Positions 15,917 to 44,827 of a stretch of DNA of 64,000 nt are shown in pieces. Each line of letters begins with the position of its first letter. The stretch's first letter is position 1. The position numbers and the translations under genes were made by a program. The notes under the pieces are model-generated. The model was given only the letters and a program-made list of their open reading frames with translations. It did no database searches and had not been told where the DNA came from. The DNA is from an uncultured Gemmatimonadota bacterium (lineage in GTDB: Bacteria > JAAXHH01), in assembly GCA_951812955.1 (NCBI GenBank), contig OX638340.1, positions 2,816,001 through 2,880,000 of the forward strand. Reading direction: 5' to 3'.

Positions 15917-15920
<4 letters not shown>
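14427..15920 (-). CDS. dacB: D-alanyl-D-alanine carboxypeptidase/endopeptidase (PBP4, peptidase S13)
   Basis: 497 aa. Lipoprotein-type signal ([10 protein letters not shown]). SxxK as ASNTKL. KTG as AKTGTL. PBP4-like length and layout. Confidence 0.88.
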
Positions 15921-17242
<1,322 letters not shown>

Positions 17243-17300
17243 GTGACCCCGTTTTTACTTTCTGCAACCGCTACTTTTTTGAAAAAAATGAAATAAAATG

Positions 17301-17329
17301 TTGACTAAGAATCGGGCCGAATATATACT
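17301..17329 (+). promoter_or_regulatory. putative sigma-70-type promoter with no obvious downstream gene
   Basis: TTGACT (17301-17306), 17-nt spacer, TATACT (17324-17329), inside an AT-rich 690-bp spacer. The nearest + strand CDS is about 600 nt away. Confidence 0.35.
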
Positions 17330-17645
17330 TATAACTCGCTAAACGGAGCATAGTTAAACACATCCGAACCATAGCCAGCGCAACACCTTATGCGGGGCCG
17401 TGTACAATGTCAAGGAAGATTTGGCGGCAGACGCGGGTGTGCAATGGGTATGATAGCGCGATGGATACGGACCGTGTTATGCAATTCGTTTCAGACCATG
17501 ACGAAGGATGAAGTTATTTTCGTGTTATTCGTCGTACGCAACCATTCCACGCAGATGGCAGAATTCGGCCAATGGTCTCGTATTGCTTAGAGTCCCATAG
17601 GGTTTCGGATTCAGCCAGGTGCGCGGTGGCGGAACGCTGGAAATC

Positions 17646-17661
17646 TGGCACGTTGTTTGCA
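17646..17661 (+). promoter_or_regulatory. sigma-54 (RpoN) -24/-12 promoter
   Basis: CTGGCACGTTGTTTGCAT matches the consensus YTGGCACG-N4-TTGCW. GG at 17647-17648 and GC at 17659-17660 have the canonical spacing. Faces the TonB-dependent receptor operon about 270 nt downstream. Confidence 0.7.
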
Positions 17662-17934
17662 TTTGAAGGTTACTCGGATTCCTCGAACTCAAAATCGGTT
17701 TTTCGTTGCGTGTTCATGCCCTTGCACGCGACGGTTTGTATGTCGTTTCTTATGTAAAGGTATTTACGATTATCTATATTTATACGATTGCCCCACTACC
17801 ATCGCTGGAGGGAGGTGAGTGTCACGGAGTAAGGTTGTAGAATTCAAAGTCGAGAGAGCAATACTACGATACCGTCAGCAGGCCGGGGCAAGCTGACAAT
17901 AATCAGAAGGGCTCTGTTAATGAGGAGTGAATTG

Positions 17935-20900
17935 ATGTCTATAACAATTTCACGAGCTTTGCGCTTCGCATTCGCTTTCGCGTTAGTGCTCAGCATCTCG
18001 ACGGATGCACTGGCGCAGTTGTCGCTGGGTAAAGTTTCCGGTGTCGTGGTCGACAGTGAGACGCGGGAACCGCTGCCGGCAGCCAGTGTCCAAATCGAGG
18101 GCACGGTTTTGGGTGCGATGGCGAATGACATGGGCGAGTACTTTATTCTTAACGTACCGCCCGGCAACTACACCGTGGTGGTGAACGTCATCGGTTATGT
18201 CCCGGTGCGTGCCATAGGTACCGAGGTACACGCCGACTTGACCACGACGATGCACTTCGAGCTGGATTCGACGATTCTCGACTCCGCCGAAGCGGTCGAG
18301 GTCGTGGCGACACGGGATCTGGTCGAGAAGAGTCTCACTTCCACCCGGACCATCGTGGCGGCCGAGGAAATCCAGGCGCTGCCGGTGACCAGCATCGCCG
18401 AAGTGGTTCTGACCACGGCGGGCAGTTTCGGCGGCCGGCTCCGCGGCGGCGAAGCCAATCAATCGCAGACCACGCTGGACGGTTCAACAGTGACCGGGCA
18501 GCGAACTAATGAAAGTCAGGCGTTTGCGATCAACCCCTACATGATCCAGGAACTCGAGGTCAAGACGGGAACGTTCAACGCCGAGTACGTGAACGCGTTG
18601 GCCGGGATCACTTCGGTGGTTACCCGTGAAGGCGGTGCGAGTTACAACGGTAACTTCGAATACCGCACGTTGGGCCAGAAGGGTCTGAATTGGGCCAAGC
18701 CGCCCGAACTCGACATCGTGGACGCGTACCGCGCCGGAACCTGGTCGGAAGCCGACTTGCGCAAGGTCATTCAGGACGCGATCGACAAGACGAACGAGTT
18801 CAACAGTGATCCCGCACGCGCGGAGGACGGACTCAGGATGCAGGATCCCTTCGACGTGCTGGACATGACCGGAGCCCCGGATAGCTGGTCCGCCATCTAC
18901 AAGCGGGACAACTATTATTGGGATTACGACCGCGTCATTCCCGAACCCGAAGCCATCACGTGGTCCTACCTGACCGACGGATTGCCGGAAGCCCAGGCCA
19001 ATAGTTTCGCGGTGGACCGGTCTTTCCATCCTGATAAATACAACCAGTTCGCCCAGAACAACCGGACCGAGAAACGTCCGGTACAGATTGACTTCGGTAT
19101 GGGCGGTCCACTGGGCGACAAGCTGAACTGGTTCGCGTCGGGACGTTTCGCGGAGAGTTGGGGTCGCAATCCCGACGATTACATCCGTGTGATGAACTCC
19201 TTCATCAAGATGACCTACCGGCCTACCGTCAGCACCAAGGTGACCATGTCCGGACTCATCGAAGACACGGGTTTCTTCAGCAAGAAGGGCCAGCGGGGCT
19301 CAGCCAGCGTCGGCGGAACTTTCGACCCCGGTGCCTCGAACTATGGTTGGAAGTACAATAAAGAAGGTCTCAACCAGAATTTCGGCGGCCGAGTGCATGT
19401 GAATGCGTCGTTTACCCAGACGCTCAGTCCCCGTACCTTCTACGAGATCCGGTTTAGCCACCTGCGCGAGTACAACGAGCGCTATAATCCCAAGTACGGC
19501 AAGGAACCGCTGCCGTCCCTCACCGACGCGTTCATCCACTCCGTTGGATATTCGCCGCTCGAGCAGGGTAGCGGCACGCAGGTACCTTATATCCTGTACG
19601 GCGATGAGGCTTACTCCTCGATCGATTTCGGTAACTACACGAGTCGACGCCCGTTCAAGACCGACGTCAGCTTCGCCATTACAAGCCAGGTCACCTCGAA
19701 TCACCAGTTCAAGGGCGGCTTCGGTGTTGTGATGAATGATTATGAAGAGAACACGCGCGGTCCAGCCCGTGGAAACGCCGTGACGCTCTTCAACGATCTG
19801 AATCGGGATCCAACTGCCAGCGTACTGCCCCTCGCAGGACGCCAGGCTCACGTGTATCCGTTCGAATTATTCGCGTACATGCAGGATCGGATCGAGTACG
19901 GAAGCCTTGTGGTAAACGCGGGAGTGCGGCTGGACATGTTCGACGCCAACGCCAACGCGATCAATCCTTATCGTCCGCGTCCGGGCCCCGATCCCGAACA
20001 CGACGATCCGGAATACCGCACGCTTGCTCCGTCGATGAAGACGGGTCTCGCGCCGCGCCTGGGTATCTCCCATCCGATCACGGATCGCGCCGCGCTGCAT
20101 TATTCGTACGGTATCTTCAACCAGCGTCCCTCGCTGGAGAACCTGTTCACCGGTCTGGTTCAAACCTCCTCGTTTGAGCGCAACCACGGAAACCCGGATC
20201 TGCCGTTCCAGAAGTCCACGAACTACGAAATGGGTCTGCAGGCCGAGGTCTATCCCGGATACTATCTGGACGTTACCGGTTATTTCCGGGATGTTAACAA
20301 CCTGCCGCTGGTATGGCTCTTCGCGCCGGACGTAGCCTTCATCGGCGGTTCGCAGCGCGAAATCTCCATCCTGCTTCCGACTTTCGCACAGGATACGCGG
20401 GGACTCGAGGTGTCGTTACGGCGCCAGATGGCCAATCGGTTCTCATTGCGGGCCAATTACACCCTGGCCTTCACATCCAATCTGACCACGCCCCAAACGG
20501 TCCGTGAACGCGGCGGCGAGACGGTGCTCGTGTTCTCCGACTTCGTGGACGGAACACCGACGCCCGATACCTACATCCGCGAATTCACCCAGTTCGACCG
20601 ACGACATCGGATCGTAACGAACCTCCTGGTCGAGCTGCCCTACGGCATCAGCGCTTCTGTACTGACCAAGGCGCAGAGCGGCAACCAGTACCGCACGTCC
20701 AGCGAGCAGGCAATCGATCCGCTCGGTTTGCTTGCCGCATCGCAACGCTCGCCCTGGACGTGGACGAGCGACCTGTACGCCCAGAAGAATTTCGATCTGG
20801 GTAACGTACGCCTCGGCGTGTTCGCCCAGGTCAATAACATCTTTGACCGAGTGAACATCTACAGCATCACCGGTGGCTCTAACAACGCGAGCGGCGACCG

Positions 20901-21012
20901 CTGGCAACGCCGGGGAGATCCCGTCGGTCTCACAGGCGGTCCTGTGGGCGGAATCGGCACGCAGGCCAACGGTCCTCGTGACATCTGGTTGGGTCTCAAC
21001 TTAGCATGGTAA
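17935..21012 (+). CDS. TonB-dependent receptor with N-terminal carboxypeptidase-regulatory-like domain
   Basis: Start at the ATG preceded by GAGGAG. Signal peptide ...LSISTDALAQ. CarbopepD_reg-like segment (VSGVVVDSETREPLPAASVQIEG...NVPPGNYTVVVNVIGY). Plug region, then a long beta-barrel rich in alternating aromatic residues, ending with a terminal aromatic (LNLAW). Confidence 0.85.
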   Translation: MSITISRALRFAFAFALVLSISTDALAQLSLGKVSGVVVDSETREPLPAASVQIEGTVLGAMANDMGEYFILNVPPGNYTVVVNVIGYVPVRAIGTEVHADLTTTMHFELDSTILDSAEAVEVVATRDLVEKSLTSTRTIVAAEEIQALPVTSIAEVVLTTAGSFGGRLRGGEANQSQTTLDGSTVTGQRTNESQAFAINPYMIQELEVKTGTFNAEYVNALAGITSVVTREGGASYNGNFEYRTLGQKGLNWAKPPELDIVDAYRAGTWSEADLRKVIQDAIDKTNEFNSDPARAEDGLRMQDPFDVLDMTGAPDSWSAIYKRDNYYWDYDRVIPEPEAITWSYLTDGLPEAQANSFAVDRSFHPDKYNQFAQNNRTEKRPVQIDFGMGGPLGDKLNWFASGRFAESWGRNPDDYIRVMNSFIKMTYRPTVSTKVTMSGLIEDTGFFSKKGQRGSASVGGTFDPGASNYGWKYNKEGLNQNFGGRVHVNASFTQTLSPRTFYEIRFSHLREYNERYNPKYGKEPLPSLTDAFIHSVGYSPLEQGSGTQVPYILYGDEAYSSIDFGNYTSRRPFKTDVSFAITSQVTSNHQFKGGFGVVMNDYEENTRGPARGNAVTLFNDLNRDPTASVLPLAGRQAHVYPFELFAYMQDRIEYGSLVVNAGVRLDMFDANANAINPYRPRPGPDPEHDDPEYRTLAPSMKTGLAPRLGISHPITDRAALHYSYGIFNQRPSLENLFTGLVQTSSFERNHGNPDLPFQKSTNYEMGLQAEVYPGYYLDVTGYFRDVNNLPLVWLFAPDVAFIGGSQREISILLPTFAQDTRGLEVSLRRQMANRFSLRANYTLAFTSNLTTPQTVRERGGETVLVFSDFVDGTPTPDTYIREFTQFDRRHRIVTNLLVELPYGISASVLTKAQSGNQYRTSSEQAIDPLGLLAASQRSPWTWTSDLYAQKNFDLGNVRLGVFAQVNNIFDRVNIYSITGGSNNASGDRWQRRGDPVGLTGGPVGGIGTQANGPRDIWLGLNLAW

Positions 21013-21101
21013 ATCCAACGCGGGAAGACGCGCAGTTAAAAGGTGTCTTCCCGCCAGGTTGGCGACGTTCGCAGAACGTTGCCGGCATAAGGAGGTTCAT
21101 T

Positions 21102-24100
21102 TTGAAGAAATGGCGTCGATATGTAACAGCCGGAGCTGTCGTGTTTACGACGGCGATCGCCTTGGGGGTCGCACAATACCTCACGGCGTTGCCGGACGCA
21201 CCGGCAAGATCCTCGGCGACTCAGGGGTCTCCGATCCCGAACGAACTCGCCCTGGATTCAAGGCAAGATGCCTATATCGGCGGTCAGACCTACATGGCCG
21301 TCATGAATTCGGAACTTACCGACACCTACACTGGCGTGGGCTGGCGGGGTTCGGGCCGTTCCATGAGTCCCACGATGGGCTTTCCTTCGTACACCTTTCC
21401 CGCAGGTGGGTTGGACGCGCCGCTATGGGCGTCGGCTATGGGTATCACGGCTTATCAGCCCAACGCTGTGGCCGGTATGCCCATCAGTCGCGCCGAAGGT
21501 GATTTCATCGGCACCACCAACGTCTATCGCGCGCCGCCTCATCAGCGTGAACAGGCCCCGCAAGGCTTCTGGTCAGATCAGGGCGGATCGAGCAGCCCGG
21601 GTTTTGCCGGTGGAACCGTGGGACCGGGTGGTTACCGTGAGCCCTTCATAACGGAAACGACCTTCAATACGAACGCGGGTATTCGGGTCCAGCGTCAGTC
21701 GTACAGCTTCAGCTACGGCTACGGCCATACGAATGACTTCATCCTGTTGCGTCACGTGCTGAATGTTCACGGTGAGGTAGACGTAAATCAGGATGGTATG
21801 TTAGAAGAGGGTCAGAATGGCGGAGTTACGATCAGGAACTTCCTGATCATTTTCAACTATGACTTCGACATTCCCTGGACCAACAACCCCCTCCTGACCG
21901 GTGGGGCGATCGGCGGCGGTACAGGCGGTGACGACAAGCAGCCACCTGCCATGTTCAGCCGAGTGATGCCTCGCGCCGTACCGGAGGGGCTGATCAATTC
22001 GGGCCGATACAACCAGGCTCCGTACAGCGACCGGTTCTATTCCGGCCTGGTCACCATGTTCGACGAGGACGATCCGGGTCATCCGGGCATCGACTCCTAC
22101 GTATGGAACACGACCAACGGTAACTTCAATCCGTTGCACGTGGGCGAAGCTTCGTTGATTGTGCTTGAAGGCTCCGGCGATGAAGATCCGCTCGGGGACT
22201 TGAACAACGCCGCTGCGCTTGATATCTACGATGCGCCTTCAGTCGGCCTGTTCAATACCCATGAATGGTGGATCGCTGACCTGAGAACTGTTTTCGGATG
22301 GTACGAGGGTTCGCTTACCAAGTACCTGGAGAACAAGACGGTCAACGTGCCTGGCGGCAGCAGCGCACCGCATCCGGATCTTTTCACCAGTGGCAGTCCG
22401 CTTGAAAGAAATACCGATATCAGTACCTGGACCGCCAAGACGCAGGCTGGTGGATCGGCCGAGGGCATGGGCCTGAAGTGGGGCGACCCGCGCAATCTGA
22501 CCCAACCCGGCAATCCTGGTACGGCCGCCATAGGTCTGCAGCCAGGTCAGTACGATAGCATCACGCTCTTCGATCTCGATGGCGTGTTTGCCGGCATCGT
22601 GCCTGATCCGTACAACGGCAGCGACACGAAGGACGAGACCTCCGGCGCCGGTTGCATCCGGAACGCTCTTGGCTGGGGACCCTACACCAAGGCACCCGGC
22701 GAAGATCTTAGCATCTGGCATGTTGACCTGATAGGGGCCGGTAAAGACGGCGCCTACGACGTTTACCTCCGCGCGCAGGACGTCTGGATGCAGCGGAAGT
22801 ACAACATGGCCAACAACACGTACTACTGGGACGGTTCCAACGACCGCATCATCCCCGTGTATAACGCGGATGGTTCCATCGCTCGGGACGGTGCCGACGA
22901 AGCCATGACCGTTACGCACAACTTCGGTCGCGGTGCTGCCAGCGGCGCGCTGTTCCATCCGGCGCCTCCTCCTACCCTGTCGGTCTTCCCGACCGCCAAC
23001 GGTACGATCGCGCTGGCGTGGGCCAACAATGCGGAAACGGCTATCGATCCGGGCCGGGGCGTTGTGGATTTCGCGAAGTACCGCGTGTACCGCGCTTCCG
23101 GTTTCATCGATCAGTTCCCGACCGCTACGGTCGCCCATGAAGTCGGTTACAATAGTACGGTGATCCCGCCGAATCTCGGTCTGAGCGAAGGTGCGTCCGC
23201 GATTACGGACGTGACCGATCCGACGACCGCAGCGGTAAAGCAGGGCCATCCGTACGCCCGGTTCATCCATGAAGGCCTTACGCTCGGTGCCGACTACAAC
23301 ATCGGTCGGGTATACGACTTCGTGGCTGACGACCTGGTTAAGCGCTTCGCGGCGCCTAACTTCTCGGGACCGTACGTCCAGATCGCTGAATTCGGCGGTG
23401 GCGGCGGCAATCAGACCAACAGCCTGAATCCGCCAGAATCCGTATCGTATCCGAATCCGTATCCGGCGGGAAGCAGGATTCCGGGCTTCGAGGATGATTT
23501 TATCGAAACCACGCCGAGTTCGACACAGATCGTTCAAGCGAACAACGACTTGGGCGCCACGACGGCTATCGCGACCAGTTTCTCTGATCGCTATCCTGAT
23601 GCAGTCGGATCAGGCGATGCGCAGATTACCAGTGTCGGCGGTATTCTCGCGGATCCCCGCCTGGTCGGCAAAAGCGGTTATATGTTCGAAGATCGTTCGG
23701 TGCTGATTGGGTTCAGCTACTGGTACTACGTGGCCGCGGTAGATAACGAAAGCGCGCAACAGCACGATTTCGACAACTACGTAGCCGATCAGGGCTCGTC
23801 CCAGCGGGTAATCACCCGTACCATCAACGGGCTCGAGAGTTTCTACACGATGAACGCAAACGGGACGGATGGACGGTGGCACGGTCAGTATCCCTACCGG
23901 GGTCTGTCAGTGGGGCCGCAGGTACCGGGACAGGACGTCGTTCCGACGACCGTGGCTCGTAACGAGGTGGCAGGCGGTGTGGCGGAATTCGAAAATCTGA
24001 TGACCGTCGCCCCCAACCCCTTCGTTTTCCAGGCCCAGTGGGATCTGGCAACGAAGTCGCAAACCGTCAAGTTCTTCAACGCTCCGGTACCATCCCGCAT

Positions 24101-24305
24101 CACGATCTTCGACTCGGCCGGCCTTCAGGTTAAGCAGTTCTCAGTGCCTGGCGACCAGACCACGACGATCGGCGGTGTGACGGACTGGGATCTGAAGAAC
24201 GATTCCAACGTACCTGTTTCCAGCGGTCTGTACATCTGCGTGGTCGAAGCCGAAATTGGCGGCGTGAGCTACGCGAAAACGTTGAAACTCTACGTCCGGC
24301 GGTAA
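21102..24305 (+). CDS. large secreted protein of unknown function with C-terminal T9SS sorting (Por_Secre_tail/FlgD-Ig-like) domain
   Basis: TTG start 6 nt after AAGGAGG. N-terminal anchor or signal (YVTAGAVVFTTAIALGVAQ). FN3-like stretch (KYRVYRASGF). The last ~90 aa, VAPNPFVF...ITIFDSAGLQV...SGLYICVVEAEIGG...LKLYVRR, match the T9SS CTD pattern. No catalytic domain recognised. Confidence 0.7.
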   Translation: MKKWRRYVTAGAVVFTTAIALGVAQYLTALPDAPARSSATQGSPIPNELALDSRQDAYIGGQTYMAVMNSELTDTYTGVGWRGSGRSMSPTMGFPSYTFPAGGLDAPLWASAMGITAYQPNAVAGMPISRAEGDFIGTTNVYRAPPHQREQAPQGFWSDQGGSSSPGFAGGTVGPGGYREPFITETTFNTNAGIRVQRQSYSFSYGYGHTNDFILLRHVLNVHGEVDVNQDGMLEEGQNGGVTIRNFLIIFNYDFDIPWTNNPLLTGGAIGGGTGGDDKQPPAMFSRVMPRAVPEGLINSGRYNQAPYSDRFYSGLVTMFDEDDPGHPGIDSYVWNTTNGNFNPLHVGEASLIVLEGSGDEDPLGDLNNAAALDIYDAPSVGLFNTHEWWIADLRTVFGWYEGSLTKYLENKTVNVPGGSSAPHPDLFTSGSPLERNTDISTWTAKTQAGGSAEGMGLKWGDPRNLTQPGNPGTAAIGLQPGQYDSITLFDLDGVFAGIVPDPYNGSDTKDETSGAGCIRNALGWGPYTKAPGEDLSIWHVDLIGAGKDGAYDVYLRAQDVWMQRKYNMANNTYYWDGSNDRIIPVYNADGSIARDGADEAMTVTHNFGRGAASGALFHPAPPPTLSVFPTANGTIALAWANNAETAIDPGRGVVDFAKYRVYRASGFIDQFPTATVAHEVGYNSTVIPPNLGLSEGASAITDVTDPTTAAVKQGHPYARFIHEGLTLGADYNIGRVYDFVADDLVKRFAAPNFSGPYVQIAEFGGGGGNQTNSLNPPESVSYPNPYPAGSRIPGFEDDFIETTPSSTQIVQANNDLGATTAIATSFSDRYPDAVGSGDAQITSVGGILADPRLVGKSGYMFEDRSVLIGFSYWYYVAAVDNESAQQHDFDNYVADQGSSQRVITRTINGLESFYTMNANGTDGRWHGQYPYRGLSVGPQVPGQDVVPTTVARNEVAGGVAEFENLMTVAPNPFVFQAQWDLATKSQTVKFFNAPVPSRITIFDSAGLQVKQFSVPGDQTTTIGGVTDWDLKNDSNVPVSSGLYICVVEAEIGGVSYAKTLKLYVRR

Positions 24306-24316
24306 ACTTCGGTAAA

Positions 24317-24345
24317 GTCCCGCGCCATGCGTCATAGCGCGGGAC
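24317..24345 (+). other. intra-operon GC-rich hairpin (9-bp perfect stem, 11-nt loop), no U-tract
   Basis: GTCCCGCGC (24317-24325), loop, GCGCGGGAC (24337-24345), between the T9SS-CTD protein and the PorV-like gene. Confidence 0.5.
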
Positions 24346-24369: not shown

Positions 24370-25353
24370 ATGAAAGTATTTGTACGCTGGGGCGTGGTTA
24401 CCGGATTGCTGATGGCACTGTCAGCGCCGGTACATGCTCAGGTTTCCAAGGGTGGAACCGCCGCGACGAAATTTCTGACGCTTGATTCCAGCGCTCGTGT
24501 CGCGGGTGTTGCATCCTCTGCCACATCCTACACGGATCTTGGCGCTTTCTCTGCTCTGACGAATCAAGCCACCATGGTGTTCGTCGAGGGTAGAGGAGCA
24601 GTCGGCGTTTCCTATACACCGTATTTCGCGGAAATGACGCTGTTCAGTGCCGGTCTGGTGTGGAATCTCGGCGATAACGGCGCCGTGGGTCTGAGTGTGC
24701 ATTCGCTGCTTTCGGGCGACATACCCTATACCACATCCGGTGATCCGACGGGTCAATTTGCCACAGCTGGCCAGAACTTTTCCGTGTCTGACCTGGCCAT
24801 CGGTCCGAGTTATGCGCGTCGACTGACGGATTCATTCGCCGTCGGCGGATCGTTGAAGTATATCTCGGAAGGCACGAGCGGCGCTGGAGATGACGACCGT
24901 ACCAGCACAGCGGTCGCGGTGGACGTGGGTACGATTTACACCACGGATTTCCGTAATTTCCGTATAGGCGCCTCGTTCCAGAATTTTGGTCCGGACATGC
25001 AATTCATCGATGAATCGAGTGCTCGCGACCAGTTGCCTACGACGTTCCGTATCGGTTTTGCCGCTGAGCCGGCCGAACTGCCGACGGGAAGCGTGATGCT
25101 CAGCGCAGAGCTGTGGAAACTCCGCGAGTACGATTCAGTACTCAATCTGGGTATCGAGTGGTGGGTTAACGATTATATCGCGGGACGGGTTGGCTGGAAA
25201 GCCGGATACAGCGGCGGCCAGGATGAAGGCGTATCCGCCGGCGCAGGTCTCCGGTTCAGCCAGGGTGAATTGAGTCTCAACGTTGATTACGCGTATACGC
25301 AGTTTGAACTTCTGGACGATCTGCATCGCGTGTCCGTAGGTGTGGGCTTCTAA
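24370..25353 (+). CDS. PorV/PorQ family outer-membrane beta-barrel protein
   Basis: 327 aa. Signal peptide ...SAPVHAQ. The N-terminal block GGTAATKFLTLDSSARVAGVASSA matches the PorV/PorQ hallmark (GTxAxxFLxIxxxARxxxMG). Beta-barrel-like alternation, ending in F. Confidence 0.65.
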   Translation: MKVFVRWGVVTGLLMALSAPVHAQVSKGGTAATKFLTLDSSARVAGVASSATSYTDLGAFSALTNQATMVFVEGRGAVGVSYTPYFAEMTLFSAGLVWNLGDNGAVGLSVHSLLSGDIPYTTSGDPTGQFATAGQNFSVSDLAIGPSYARRLTDSFAVGGSLKYISEGTSGAGDDDRTSTAVAVDVGTIYTTDFRNFRIGASFQNFGPDMQFIDESSARDQLPTTFRIGFAAEPAELPTGSVMLSAELWKLREYDSVLNLGIEWWVNDYIAGRVGWKAGYSGGQDEGVSAGAGLRFSQGELSLNVDYAYTQFELLDDLHRVSVGVGF

Positions 25354-25409
25354 ACAAAAGGCCAGAGCGTACGGATGGATGTAAGAATATCGTTAGTTTG
25401 AAGTACCAG

Positions 25410-25447
25410 GAGAATCCCTCAGTCCGTTTGATGAGGGATTCTCTTAT
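25410..25447 (+). terminator. putative rho-independent terminator of the TBDR operon
   Basis: 12-bp perfect stem GAGAATCCCTCA / TGAGGGATTCTC with a 10-nt loop, followed by TTAT. Located 57 nt after the PorV-like stop. Confidence 0.6.
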
Positions 25448-25471
25448 GTAGTGAAAGAATTGAGGACGCTG

Positions 25472-27379
25472 ATGGGATTGAACGTGAGACGAAATATCAC
25501 ATACTGTTATGCATTAAAGTTTGTTGTAATCGTTTGTATGGCGGCTGCCTGTGTGTTGACCGGCCTGGACGCCATGGCCATACAGTTAAGCGGCACAGTG
25601 ACCGATGGGAAGGATCCCGTGCCGGGTGTCCGAGTTCGAGAACACGGTAAACCGAATTTCGTTGTGACCGATTCAGAAGGCAGATTCACCCTCAACATCA
25701 CCGAAGAACCCGTGCAGCAGTACGCCATAACGGCCGGTAAGGAAGGCTGGTTGAACGGCGGGGTCATGGTGGATCGAAAAACATCATATACGACGATTAT
25801 TATACAAAAAGTACCTGAAGAAATAGACACCTCGTACGATTTCATTACCCCCCACAAATCCCTGGTCGATCTGCGCGAGGAGCCGGAAGAGCTGGAGAGA
25901 CTCCGCGCGCAATCGCACACGGGCTTCGAGGAGGGGTGCAACCTCTGTCATTTCGAGCCGACCTGCTACCTCTGCCATAGAGATCTCTACGATCAATGGA
26001 GCACTTCGCAACACGCGAAGGGTGTCGACAACCCGTGGACGTTGAATCTTTACGATGGTACTGATGCGGACGGGAACGAAAACGTGGGACCGGGATTCAG
26101 GCTGGATTTTCCTGACGAAGCCGGAGAATGCGCCGATTGCCACGCGCCGTCAGCAGCTGTCGACGCGCCAGGGAAGACCGACTTGAAGGTAGTATACAAT
26201 CGTTCGCTGGCTTATCCGACCGTCCAGGACTACAAGACGCTCGAACGCATGGAATACGAAAGACTTGCCGGCTCGGTCGATGCCGCGGGAATTCACTGCG
26301 ATTTCTGCCACAAGATTCAAAATGTGGAAGTCAATGATCACGCGGGGGTAAATGGATCCATCACGCTGAACCTGGTGGCCATGGAAGAGGAAAAGCAGGC
26401 CCGGCTCATCAAGGGGAAGTTCCCGCCGATATTCGTGTACGGACCCTATGACGATGTTATAAATTTCACCCCATTACCGGGTTCATCCAACACCTCACCC
26501 ATGGTGGCGAGCTACAATCCGATCTACACGAGCAGCGACTACTGCTCCGCCTGCCACCAGCACAAAAACAAGCACGGCCTTCCGTTCATGGATACGTACC
26601 AGGAGTGGAAGGATAGTCCCTATTCCGCCATGGGCATAGAATGCCAGGACTGCCATATGAAGCCGGAGTCCGACGGTTTCACCTTTGGTTCTTTCGTGAA
26701 CGGCGACGCGGAGAAGTTCTGGACACCCATCGGATACCGGGACCCGACAACCGTTAAAACGCATGGGTTTCCGGGGGCCACAGAGACGCTCCTGCCGAAC
26801 GCCGCGACCCTGGCCATCAATTCCGTTGTTTCCAATGGACTGTTGACGGTGACCGTTGACGTGCGTAACGTCAATACGGGGCACCATATACCTTCGGGTA
26901 TCACCATCAGGAATATGCTGTTGCTCGTTACGCCCGTTCTGGCGAATGGAGATACCTTGCGTTACGTGGGGGACCAGCGTGTTCCGGTTTACGGCGGCGA
27001 AGGCGACCCGGCCGAAGGAAATTACGCGGGCTACCCGGGTAAGGGATTCGCCCTGGTTTTCGGTGATGACGCCGGCAACACCCATGTCATGGACTGGCAG
27101 GCGACCCGCATTGTCGAGGACACGCGAATCAAGGCGCGAGAGGCAGATCGTTCCGTATATACATTTGAAGTACCATCGGACATCGAGCGCGTGGATGTTC
27201 ATACGGATCTGATTTATAGAAGAGCATTCAAACCGTTGGCCGATCTCAAGAAGTGGACGCAGAAGGATATGAACGTGGCGTCGGACATCACCACGGTAAG
27301 GCCAGTTGGACAACTCGAAGTTTCCACTCCTTCGAAAGGACTGAGCCTCCGCGATCGTATCAGATCCTACTTCGATTGA
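25472..27379 (+). CDS. multiheme c-type cytochrome (6 CxxCH) with N-terminal carboxypeptidase-regulatory-like domain
   Basis: Six heme-binding motifs: CNLCH, CYLCH, CADCH, CDFCH, CSACH, CQDCH. N-terminal membrane anchor. CarbopepD_reg-like LSGTVTDGKDPVPGVRVRE...DSEGRFTL. ATG 25472 is preferred over the GTG 25451 of the ORF track. Confidence 0.85.
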   Translation: MGLNVRRNITYCYALKFVVIVCMAAACVLTGLDAMAIQLSGTVTDGKDPVPGVRVREHGKPNFVVTDSEGRFTLNITEEPVQQYAITAGKEGWLNGGVMVDRKTSYTTIIIQKVPEEIDTSYDFITPHKSLVDLREEPEELERLRAQSHTGFEEGCNLCHFEPTCYLCHRDLYDQWSTSQHAKGVDNPWTLNLYDGTDADGNENVGPGFRLDFPDEAGECADCHAPSAAVDAPGKTDLKVVYNRSLAYPTVQDYKTLERMEYERLAGSVDAAGIHCDFCHKIQNVEVNDHAGVNGSITLNLVAMEEEKQARLIKGKFPPIFVYGPYDDVINFTPLPGSSNTSPMVASYNPIYTSSDYCSACHQHKNKHGLPFMDTYQEWKDSPYSAMGIECQDCHMKPESDGFTFGSFVNGDAEKFWTPIGYRDPTTVKTHGFPGATETLLPNAATLAINSVVSNGLLTVTVDVRNVNTGHHIPSGITIRNMLLLVTPVLANGDTLRYVGDQRVPVYGGEGDPAEGNYAGYPGKGFALVFGDDAGNTHVMDWQATRIVEDTRIKAREADRSVYTFEVPSDIERVDVHTDLIYRRAFKPLADLKKWTQKDMNVASDITTVRPVGQLEVSTPSKGLSLRDRIRSYFD

Positions 27380-43588: not shown

Positions 43589-44827
43589 TCAATCCTCGGG
43601 CCGTTCACCGGCGGGCGCCATCTTCACCAGCCTGGGTTCGAAGCGGGCCACCACTTCCACCAGGTCGGTCTGCGCCGCCATCACCTCTTCGATATTCTTG
43701 TACACAAAAGGGACTTCGTCGAGACCGGCGGACATGAGCGTGACGCCTCTCTCCCGGAGGATCCGGTTGGCGTCCTGCCAGTTCAGGCTCCTGATCGCCC
43801 GTTTCCGGCTCATCACGCGGCCGGCGCCGTGGGCGGCCGAATTCATGGCGTCCCGGCTCCCCTTCCCACGGACCACGAAGGCGGGACTCGCCATCGAACC
43901 GGGTATGATGCCCAGCACGCCCCGGCCGGCCGGCGTAGCGCCCTTCCGGTGTACCACTGCTTTCCGGTCCGGACGCTGGCCGGGGACGGTGATTCTTTCC
44001 TTCCACGCGAAGTTATGGTGGTTTTCCAGGTCAAGCAACACTTCCGCGCCGAGATAACCGGCCATGTGGCGGTGTATGCAGGCGTGGTTGGCCGCCGCGT
44101 AGTGTCCCATGAGCTCCATGGCCGCCCAGTACTCCTGGCCCGGTTCGGTGTCCAGGTCCAGCCAGGCGAGATGGCGCTGCTCTTTGGACAGCCCGGGACG
44201 CAGGGACATGGCCAGCCTGCTGTAATGGGAGGCGACCATGGCGCCGGTCCCCCGGCTGCCGCTGTGAGAAAGCAGGGCGAGGTAGGCGCCGGTATCCAGC
44301 CCGTTCAACGGTTCGTTCAGGGTCAGTTCACCGAATTCGACGAAATGGTTGCCGCTCCCACTGGTGCCCAGTTGGCTCCAGGCCTTGTCCCTGGCCTTGC
44401 GCGTCACGGGAGATACGGACCAGTTCCGGTCAAGGACCGGGTGACTTCGGCGTTTCTTGAAACTGGATCCGACGCCGAAGCGTGTCTCCGCGGAGATGGC
44501 CTTTCTGAGCCGGTCCGTTCCCCGGTCCTGGCGCAGCGTGTCCAGGGGCATGTCCAGGACGGTCAGTTTCATCCGGCAGGCGATGTCGACGCCCACGGCG
44601 TAGGGAATGACCGCGTTGTCTGTGGCCAGCACGCCGCCGATGGGCAGGCCGTAACCCACGTGGGCGTCCGGCATCAGCGCGCCGGCCAGGGCCACGGGCA
44701 GGGAACAGGCCCGTTCCATCTGCTGGACCGACTGCGCGTCCAGGTCCCGCCCCCACTGCCGATAGGGTATTTTTTTTGGCACTTGCCGCGTTCCTGGATA
44801 AGGGTCCGCAGTCCATACCGCGCGCAT
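43589..44827 (-). CDS. rtcB: RNA 3'-phosphate/2',3'-cyclic phosphate ligase RtcB
   Basis: 412 aa. RtcB blocks MPDAHVGYGLPIGG, VGVDIACRM, GSGNHFVEFG, HSGSRGTG, ENHHNF, HRKGAT and the guanylyl-His block AAHGAGRVMSR. Confidence 0.92.
   Translation of the reverse strand: MRAVWTADPYPGTRQVPKKIPYRQWGRDLDAQSVQQMERACSLPVALAGALMPDAHVGYGLPIGGVLATDNAVIPYAVGVDIACRMKLTVLDMPLDTLRQDRGTDRLRKAISAETRFGVGSSFKKRRSHPVLDRNWSVSPVTRKARDKAWSQLGTSGSGNHFVEFGELTLNEPLNGLDTGAYLALLSHSGSRGTGAMVASHYSRLAMSLRPGLSKEQRHLAWLDLDTEPGQEYWAAMELMGHYAAANHACIHRHMAGYLGAEVLLDLENHHNFAWKERITVPGQRPDRKAVVHRKGATPAGRGVLGIIPGSMASPAFVVRGKGSRDAMNSAAHGAGRVMSRKRAIRSLNWQDANRILRERGVTLMSAGLDEVPFVYKNIEEVMAAQTDLVEVVARFEPRLVKMAPAGERPED

Follow-up and report, generated by a model that had tools for sequence, protein, structure and literature searches.

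A probable composite control region with a predicted sigma-54 promoter, an upstream sigma-70-type promoter and a conserved leader ahead of an outer-membrane receptor gene in uncultivated marine and sponge bacteria

In Escherichia coli, the glnALG operon is transcribed from the tandem promoters glnAp1 (sigma-70) and glnAp2 (sigma-54), which are accompanied by NtrC sites, and the receptor gene btuB is preceded by a cobalamin riboswitch. Together with canonical sigma-54 promoters served by a remote activator, these are the described systems to which the locus reported here is compared. It lies within 64,000 nucleotides of contig OX638340.1 (assembly GCA_951812955.1), referred to below as the window, in the 692-bp intergenic region between a divergent threonine synthase gene (thrC) and a gene for a TonB-dependent-receptor-like outer-membrane protein. 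Related loci were found in Latescibacterota, which have no cultured member and are common in sponges, corals and low-oxygen seawater; to our knowledge, almost nothing is known about the transcription signals of this phylum. The intergenic region is probably a composite control region, in which an RpoN (sigma-54) promoter and an upstream sigma-70-type promoter share a regulatory leader.

The sigma-54 box TGGCACGTTGTTTGCA (17646-17661, + strand) exactly matches the -24/-12 consensus, which has been given as TGGCACN5-7TTGCT (PMC12316311). Within CTGGCACGTTGTTTGCAT (17645-17662, + strand), the GG at 17647-17648 and the GC at 17659-17660 stand exactly 10 nt apart in TGGCAC-N5-TTGC, which is the canonical -24/-12 spacing. 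When both strands were scanned for TGGCAC-N5-TTGCW, this was the only site in 64 kb, compared with 0.03 expected per window from shuffles that keep the dinucleotide content (3 of 100 shuffles contained a match). Permitting one mismatch added a single site, located in a coding region. The box is oriented towards the receptor gene, 289 nt ahead of its ATG at 17935, and a start placed 12 nt past the C of the -12 element falls near 17672, which predicts a 5' leader of 263 nt (17672-17934, + strand). These positions bear out the initial annotation of this DNA, which had placed GG and GC at the exact -24/-12 spacing facing the receptor gene and the start about 260 nt before the ATG.

Conservation of the box was assessed in several sets of related loci. 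A scan of one genome per species yielded 24 orthologous loci with 63-97% protein identity, the source genomes of which are metagenome-assembled and labelled Latescibacterota or 'Gemmatimonadetes' (sponge and coral bins). A metagenome scan with the leader hairpin as the pattern returned 21 matches, comprising 12 further copies of the locus and 9 chance matches in other contexts, which were discarded; in L027, for instance, the match falls where a long, unrelated open reading frame (ORF) has its 3' end and stop codon. A protein search and contig look-ups added the syntenic loci L049/L050 and L054 (57% identity) as well as non-syntenic or more distant relatives. The box stands at the homologous place upstream of every syntenic orthologue with enough DNA, which amounts to about 37 loci from related uncultivated marine and sponge bacteria (Latescibacterota) at 57-97% protein identity. 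The loss of the motif upstream of orthologous operons, named in the initial annotation as evidence against a promoter, is thus not seen. The exact pattern occurs once per locus in 17 of 17 genome loci, separated from the start codon by 285-307 nt except in L024, where the distance is 455 nt, and the relaxed pattern is present in 23 of 23 genome loci, with TGGCAC-N5-TTGC followed by G or T in the remaining orthologous loci. Eleven of the 12 metagenome loci carry the box, and the twelfth ends too early to show the box region. In L049/L050 it reads TGGCACACTGTTTGCG and in L054, at 57% protein identity, TGGCACGCTGTTTGCA.

The pattern of variation is informative in itself. No locus has an insertion or deletion inside the box, TGGCAC and (G)TTTGC are fixed, and changes are confined to spacer positions 1-3 and the base after TTGC, where the sigma-54 consensus makes no demand. 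The box reaches a column conservation of about 0.9, compared with 0.56-0.57 for the preceding 30 nt and 0.64-0.74 for the following 40 nt. Since passive similarity would not produce such a pattern, it fits a promoter element that is read by a protein. The whole intergenic region evolves more slowly than the fourfold-degenerate sites of the receptor gene, with identities, computed against the window sequence, that equal or exceed those at the latter, for example 0.75 versus 0.50 for L013, 0.71 versus 0.48 for L021 and 0.57 versus 0.35 for L011. In the deepest comparisons, intergenic conservation is reduced to discrete blocks. Neither box nor leader was found in a distant Ignavibacteriales relative (L025), a non-syntenic paralogue (L051/L052) or a 48% relative (L053), and therefore the arrangement belongs to the syntenic locus of one clade. 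A separate observation concerns L055, a receptor relative of 52% identity, in which TGGCACGACTTTTGAA lies at 21-36, 230 nt before the start codon. This sigma-54-like box has the form TGGCAC-N5-TTGA, with GA replacing GC at -12, and was left uncalled; it may be either a decayed or a weak promoter, and no recognisable leader core accompanies it.

The predicted leader is 259-281 nt long in the window's clade and 307-429 nt in other clades, and hardly any change is seen in its 3' 150 nt, even in loci with only 57% protein identity. Two of its helices show compensatory changes. Hairpin P1 (GTTGCGTGT, loop TCATGCCCTT, GCACGCGAC; 17705-17732, + strand) spans 34-61 nt after the predicted start, and five of its nine pairs have changed on both sides. 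While 97% of its cells are paired, a control with one arm shifted by 1-3 columns gave 27-41%, and none of 500 shuffles reached its covariation score. A role of P1 as an attenuator was rejected, as no conserved U-tract follows it in other clades. Hairpin P4 (GTCAGC, loop AGGCCGGGGCAA, GCTGAC; 17874-17897, + strand) carries an invariant GGGGC in its 12-nt loop. It is unique in the window, and all 12 true metagenome matches lie upstream of the same receptor orthologue. Its second pair is U-A in most sequences, U-G in L004, L010, L017 and L041, and C-G in L054, in which the neighbouring pair, A-U in most sequences, is G-U. This series from U-A through U-G to C-G argues for an RNA helix rather than a DNA palindrome. 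The near-invariance of the 3' part and the covariation of P1 and P4 lend support to the initial suggestion that the long leader may carry further regulation.

Several further elements are conserved. TTGCCCC (17788-17794, + strand) is complementary over 7 bp to GGGGCAA in the P4 loop, and its GCCCC (17790-17794) and the loop's GGGGC are invariant in 31 of 31 distinct sequences; L049 keeps TTGCCCC/GGGGCAA, and L054 has GCCCC/GGGGT. A GCCCC:GGGGC pseudoknot is a possible candidate, the core of which gives no covariation information because it never varies. An extension of the pseudoknot beyond this core was rejected on account of its mixed flanking pairs, and so was a pairing of GCCCC with AGAAGGGC proposed by RNAalifold, in which the loop GGG is not conserved (AGAAGGCC, AGAAAGGT, AGAAGAGT). 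Further downstream lies an invariant, orphan extended Shine-Dalgarno-like motif, GGAGGGAGGTGA (17807-17818, + strand; also written GGAGGTGA), of which GGAGGT(G/A)A (17811-17818) is found in all loci. The orphan sequence GGAGGUGA is a perfect complement of the 16S rRNA 3' end, and a direct reading of the alignment revealed no conserved ATG, GTG or TTG 5-10 nt past GGAGGGAGGTGA. The variable segment between GGAGGT(G/A)A and P4 mostly folds as a small hairpin. The small hairpin P5 (CAGA, loop AGGGC, TCTG; 17904-17916, + strand) has a G-rich loop and conserved AGAAG and TC, and its stem is extended or replaced elsewhere (CAGTC...GACTG in the L020 clade, TGC-GGG-GCA in L054); its support is weak because the alignment there is uncertain. 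In every clade, the leader is closed by an A-rich stretch with the Shine-Dalgarno sequence GAGGAG (17922-17927, + strand), which, like the ATG at 17935-17937, is invariant in all loci. Since GAGGAG and ATGTCT are conserved in all orthologues and an ATG at 17920 is not, the ATG at 17935 is taken as the true start.

Frame-breaking insertions and deletions leave the leader without a conserved ORF. The small ORFs MQFVS... (10 amino acids) and MK(L/F)... (about 31 amino acids) and the frame after GGAGGTGA were rejected, as their frames are broken in this way and their starts are not conserved. Another feature, restricted to the window and its closest relatives, is TGTAAAGGTATTTACG at 17753-17768, a GTAAA-N4-TTTAC dyad in place of which other loci have AAGGTATTCAGA. 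Comparison with 4227 Rfam families left the leader unmatched even with E<=10 allowed; across 17150-18050 no E value fell below 0.75, and four divergent loci gave no match. This agrees with the absence of cobalamin and thiamine pyrophosphate riboswitch cores reported in the initial annotation. At the gathering score, the whole window matched tRNA only, the sole such match in 64 kb being a tRNA gene at 2665-2746. In the window and in the metagenome pattern scans, the leader element was not found before any gene other than the receptor orthologue. On these grounds, we regard the leader as a genuine RNA element under constraint, with an uncharacterised mechanism.

A bolder interpretation, which we regard as possible though doubtful, is that the leader, possibly together with the 310 nt from the upstream promoter, represents an undescribed, Latescibacterota-specific class of regulatory RNA that would couple the sigma-54/enhancer input to post-transcriptional control of the outer-membrane module. 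Here, the GCCCC:GGGGC pseudoknot and the orphan anti-16S GGAGGUGA might recruit or trap ribosomes or bind a protein. It is unlikely that the leader is instead the main device, namely a metabolite or metal riboswitch of an undescribed class whose sensing fold consists of GCCCC/GGGGC, P4 and P5, with the promoters supplying transcription only. Such a riboswitch would account for about 150 nearly invariant nt before the start codon across 57-97% protein identity, for the covarying helices, for two complementary invariant sequences of 5-7 nt of which one lies in a hairpin loop, for the lack of a match to any known family and for the constant position before one transporter orthologue, as is typical of riboswitches. 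However, no expression platform, whether a terminator or a helix hiding the Shine-Dalgarno sequence, was found, the folding energy equals that of shuffled sequences, the element occurs only once per genome region, and the pairs flanking the candidate pseudoknot are inconsistent. Moreover, conservation resides mostly in the primary sequence and in purine-rich motifs (GGAGGUGA, AGAAGGG, GAGGAG), which fits recognition by a protein, a small RNA or the ribosome equally well or better. Metabolite sensing is no more likely than the binding of one of these to the purine-rich motifs.

The second promoter of the proposed composite region, TTGACT-N17-TATACT (17301-17329, + strand; -35 at 17301-17306, -10 at 17324-17329, predicted start near 17336), is the sole promoter-like match in 17100-18000, agreeing at 10 of 12 positions. 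In all loci with enough DNA, the hexamers and the 17-bp spacing are fixed and the spacer sequence is variable. It points in the same direction as the sigma-54 box, from which it is separated by about 345 bp in the window and 317-404 bp across loci. Directly upstream of the -35 element, an A+T-rich tract, TTTTTTGAAAAAAATGAAATAAAATG (17275-17300, + strand), is present in all clades with a column conservation of 0.78-0.94 and resembles an upstream promoter (UP) element, as which it may function. There is thus strong comparative evidence for a second promoter directed the same way as the sigma-54 box, and because of it control is probably not exerted by RpoN alone. The conserved canonical -35 and -10 elements imply that this promoter lacks Bacteroidota-type -33/-7 signals despite the relatedness of the phylum. 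To the extent that a single promoter can indicate this, a member of the Fibrobacterota-Chlorobiota-Bacteroidota (FCB) superphylum seemingly uses standard sigma-70 signals rather than those of the Bacteroidota type.

Between the two promoters, a block TGTCAAGGAAGAT (17408-17420) is conserved, with GTCAA invariant in all clades and TGTCAAG at 17408-17414 in the deep alignment; a small hairpin predicted around it was rejected, as it is not retained in deeper clades. Two weak pattern matches to an intrinsic terminator in this interval are not conserved and were likewise discarded. Since no conserved terminator lies in between, transcription from the upstream promoter probably continues past the sigma-54 box. 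Frame-shifting insertions and deletions leave the 310 nt that separate the promoters without a conserved ORF, and a structured small RNA or 6S-like RNA was dismissed on the basis of a weak consensus fold (-10 kcal/mol, z = -1.8).

These observations bear on the improbable case that the box is not a promoter and that about 600 nt form one 5' untranslated region or non-coding RNA starting from 17301-17329, in which TGGCACGTTGTTTGCA would be an RNA segment or the site of another protein. In its favour, the conservation of the upstream promoter equals or exceeds that of the box, both point in the same direction, no intrinsic terminator separates the two, and constraint extends over the whole region. 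However, the variation of the box follows the sigma-54 reading, with its fixed TGGCAC and (G)TTTGC, three free spacer bases and lack of insertions and deletions, and the flanks of the box are the least conserved part of the region. The upstream 310 nt are weakly folded, at the -10 kcal/mol given above, with few covarying pairs, and an exact match to the 11-base consensus for an unrelated reason is unlikely.

Two dyads of 14 bp each lie between the promoters, in line with the initial annotation, which had proposed a search for conserved inverted repeats upstream of the box. Dyad 1, TGCAATTCGTTTCA (17480-17493; family form TGMAA-N4-TTTCR), starts 166 bp before the box, and dyad 2, TGAAGTTATTTTCG (17509-17522; consensus TGAAATTTATTTCG, that is GAAAT-N2-ATTTC), starts 137 bp before it. 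They are direct repeats of one another, and each is a partial palindrome. Dyad 1 is invariant or nearly so in the window's clade and is retained in the L020, L049 and L054 clades. The two dyads stand 29 bp apart in the window's clade and 22-24 bp apart in other clades, some of which keep one dyad. In all clades the dyads are retained 117-194 bp before the box, and conserved dyads taken together lie 117-230 bp upstream. No further copies of the leader or the dyads occur elsewhere in the 64-kb window. By position and form, they are candidate activator-binding sites (upstream activating sequences), and we know of no activator site that the form TGMAA-N4-TTTCR matches. RNAalifold alternatively pairs the two dyads as one RNA hairpin. 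Other clades (L020, L024, L042, L049, L054) carry an extra TGTGA-N6-TCACA dyad upstream of the receptor's sigma-54 box.

It is very improbable that the dyads and the other upstream blocks serve as promoter or operator of thrC rather than the receptor promoter. The thrC gene (15917-17242, - strand; PALP domain and TIGR00260) forms the left edge of the intergenic region and is kept in the syntenic loci whose fetched DNA reaches upstream. As a conserved divergent neighbour it requires a promoter in this region, and no minus-strand sigma-70-like promoter was detected. The dyads, however, lie 240-280 bp from the thrC start, yet their distance to the sigma-54 box hardly varies. It is kept in L049/L050 despite a 4HBT gene between thrC and the region, and L054 keeps the dyads together with the box. 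Finally, a chance match of the box without function, for which nothing speaks except that short consensus motifs do arise by chance, is effectively refuted by an expectation of 0.03 per window and by the conserved homologous position in about 37 loci.

Regarding the activator, the six frames of the window contain no hallmarks of an enhancer-binding protein or RpoN (GAFTGA-like, GESGTGK, RpoN box), and Pfam scans of 18 window ORFs detected no Sigma54_activat domain, as expected from the initial annotation, which had seen no such protein encoded there. Two receptor orthologues of 50-51% identity, L048 and the JGI contig of P0039, have an NtrC-type gene about 2.5 kb away. The linked regulator comprises 451 amino acids with Response_reg, Sigma54_activat and HTH_8 domains, and its gene is divergent from a response-regulator/SpoIIE phosphatase gene, an arrangement located at 1003-2620 of L048. 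The activator-side intergenic region of L048 contains a sigma-54 box, TGGCACATCTGTTGCG (2537-2552), which is preceded at a distance of 157 bp by an 18-bp dyad, GTGTGAAAAATGTCACAC (2379-2396), of the same TGTGA-N6-TCACA type as in the L020, L024, L042, L049 and L054 clades. This linkage is suggestive of a connection between the activator and the sigma-54 control of the receptor. As a separate feature of L048, a MazE/PemK toxin-antitoxin pair is inserted ahead of its receptor gene. In E. coli, rtcBA is sigma-54-dependent; the RtcB RNA ligase gene of the window (43589-44827, - strand) has no adjoining RtcR-type activator or sigma-54 box. A homologue of the L048 activator with 61% identity (P0092) carries the NCBI name of a sigma-54-dependent Fis-family regulator from a Latescibacteria bacterium, and DctBD has been reported in single-cell genomes of Latescibacteria (PMC4454575). 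Judging from these annotations, Latescibacteria do encode sigma-54 activators.

Taken as a composite control region, the locus would operate as follows. The sigma-54 promoter at 17646-17661 would initiate transcription near 17672 when activated from a distance by an enhancer-binding protein, presumably encoded elsewhere in the genome, and the dyads at 17480-17493 and 17509-17522 would be the likeliest sites for this protein. The sigma-70-type promoter with its A+T-rich tract (17275-17329) would probably give rise either to a basal transcript, the leader of which would measure about 600 nt, or to a distinct upstream RNA. Both transcripts would share the 263-nt leader with P1, GCCCC/GGGGC, the orphan GGAGGUGA, P4, P5 and the exposed Shine-Dalgarno sequence, and these elements may act at the RNA level on the stability or translation of the receptor mRNA.

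Several observations weigh against this interpretation. The folding energy of the leader is no better than that of shuffled sequences, with z = 0.05 over its full length and a mean of z = -0.4 for its core across 33 sequences. No terminator and no helix masking the Shine-Dalgarno sequence was found in the leader, where only a CUCU/GGAG pairing of 3-4 bp is possible, and the pairs flanking the candidate pseudoknot are mixed and broken in several sequences. Protein-DNA binding and RNA pairing of the dyads cannot be told apart because the dyads are invariant, and the TGTGA-N6-TCACA dyad common to other clades and L048 is absent from the window's clade. In addition, the 64-kb window holds no activator gene, no chromosome of the window's clade is among the best 120 homologues of the L048 activator, and no sigma-54 box lies immediately before L048's own receptor gene, for which reason the activator link in L048 is not a proof. 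On balance, the comparison across genomes supports the initial proposal that the outer-membrane genes are controlled by RpoN and an enhancer-binding protein, a dependence that we infer. To this proposal it adds a probable second promoter, sites that are candidates for enhancers and a leader RNA conserved across the clades.

The gene order, with thrC divergent from the genes of the receptor, a 1099-amino-acid protein, a PorV/PorQ-like barrel and a six-haem cytochrome, is kept in all loci that are long enough. The receptor gene (17935-21012, + strand) encodes a TonB-dependent-receptor-like outer-membrane protein of 1025 amino acids, for which Pfam, NCBIfam and homologues indicate CarboxypepD_reg, Plug and barrel regions. 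The Plug match scores 32.5 bits (cut-off 23.9) and the OMP_b-brl_3 barrel 26.7 bits, just below the cut-off of 27. Close homologues carry PF25183 or PF00593, and the sequence search found no solved structural relative. The second gene (21006-24305, + strand) encodes the 1099-amino-acid protein, which has no Pfam, NCBIfam or PDB sequence match, is 58-98% identical across loci and in all of them is encoded immediately behind the receptor. As annotated, its start and the receptor stop overlap by 7 nt; since relatives align only from about residue 28, translation may in fact begin further downstream. The third gene (24370-25353, + strand) encodes the PorV/PorQ-family barrel (NF033709, 187 bits), and the fourth (25451-27379, + strand) a six-haem c-type cytochrome of 642 amino acids with six CXXCH motifs, a CarboxypepD_reg-like N-terminus and weak matches to an ExtKL-type multihaem cytochrome model and cytochrome c552 (5ze8). 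G+C-rich stem-loops without a clear U-tract follow gene 2 (GTCCCGCGC...GCGCGGGAC, 24317-24345) and gene 3 (GGAGAATCCCTCA...TGAGGGATTCTC, 25409-25443) and may delimit or modulate transcription within the cluster. The PorV/PorQ-family barrel stands beside the receptor gene in a non-Bacteroidota lineage, and no other type IX secretion genes were found among the scanned ORFs. The combination of a multihaem cytochrome, a receptor-like barrel and a PorV-like barrel constitutes an unusual outer-membrane module.

The sigma-54 promoter and the candidate enhancer sites could seed a regulon search in Latescibacterota, and the conserved leader is a testable RNA element as well as the sole part of the locus that might prove new. 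As the presumably controlled genes form a conserved, uncharacterised outer-membrane module, knowledge of the inducing signal would help to assign its function.

Compared with known systems, the leader resembles riboswitch-controlled receptor leaders in position only. It shares with the cobalamin riboswitch of btuB (RF00174) a long conserved hairpin leader just before the ribosome-binding site of a receptor, but it has no RF00174 match, no B12 box, an unremarkable folding energy and no expression platform that could be found. The L048 and P0039 JGI contigs, in which an activator lies beside a sigma-54 target, contain the same receptor family, and L048 also has a large protein like that of gene 2. 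In L048, however, the box precedes the response-regulator/SpoIIE gene, and the window's clade has neither a linked activator nor the TGTGA dyad. With glnAp1/glnAp2 the locus has in common that two promoters of the same orientation stand ahead of one operon, the sigma-70 one upstream of the sigma-54 one, and that dyads of the activator type occur in the region. The promoters are 345 bp apart here and about 115 bp apart in E. coli glnA. The dyads occupy the interval between the two, 150-190 bp past the sigma-70 -10 element, whereas the glnA sites overlap the upstream promoter. Without such an overlap, glnA-type occlusion would not serve to repress the upstream promoter, and a roadblock mechanism would be needed instead. 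From canonical sigma-54 systems the locus differs in that no activator gene is nearby in this clade and the host is uncultivated. It agrees with them in the consensus, the spacing, the intergenic site facing the gene, the conservation in orthologues and the position of the dyads 120-230 bp upstream, as in a remote-enhancer layout. The locus is thus a well-supported further example of a known regulatory design in an uncultivated phylum.

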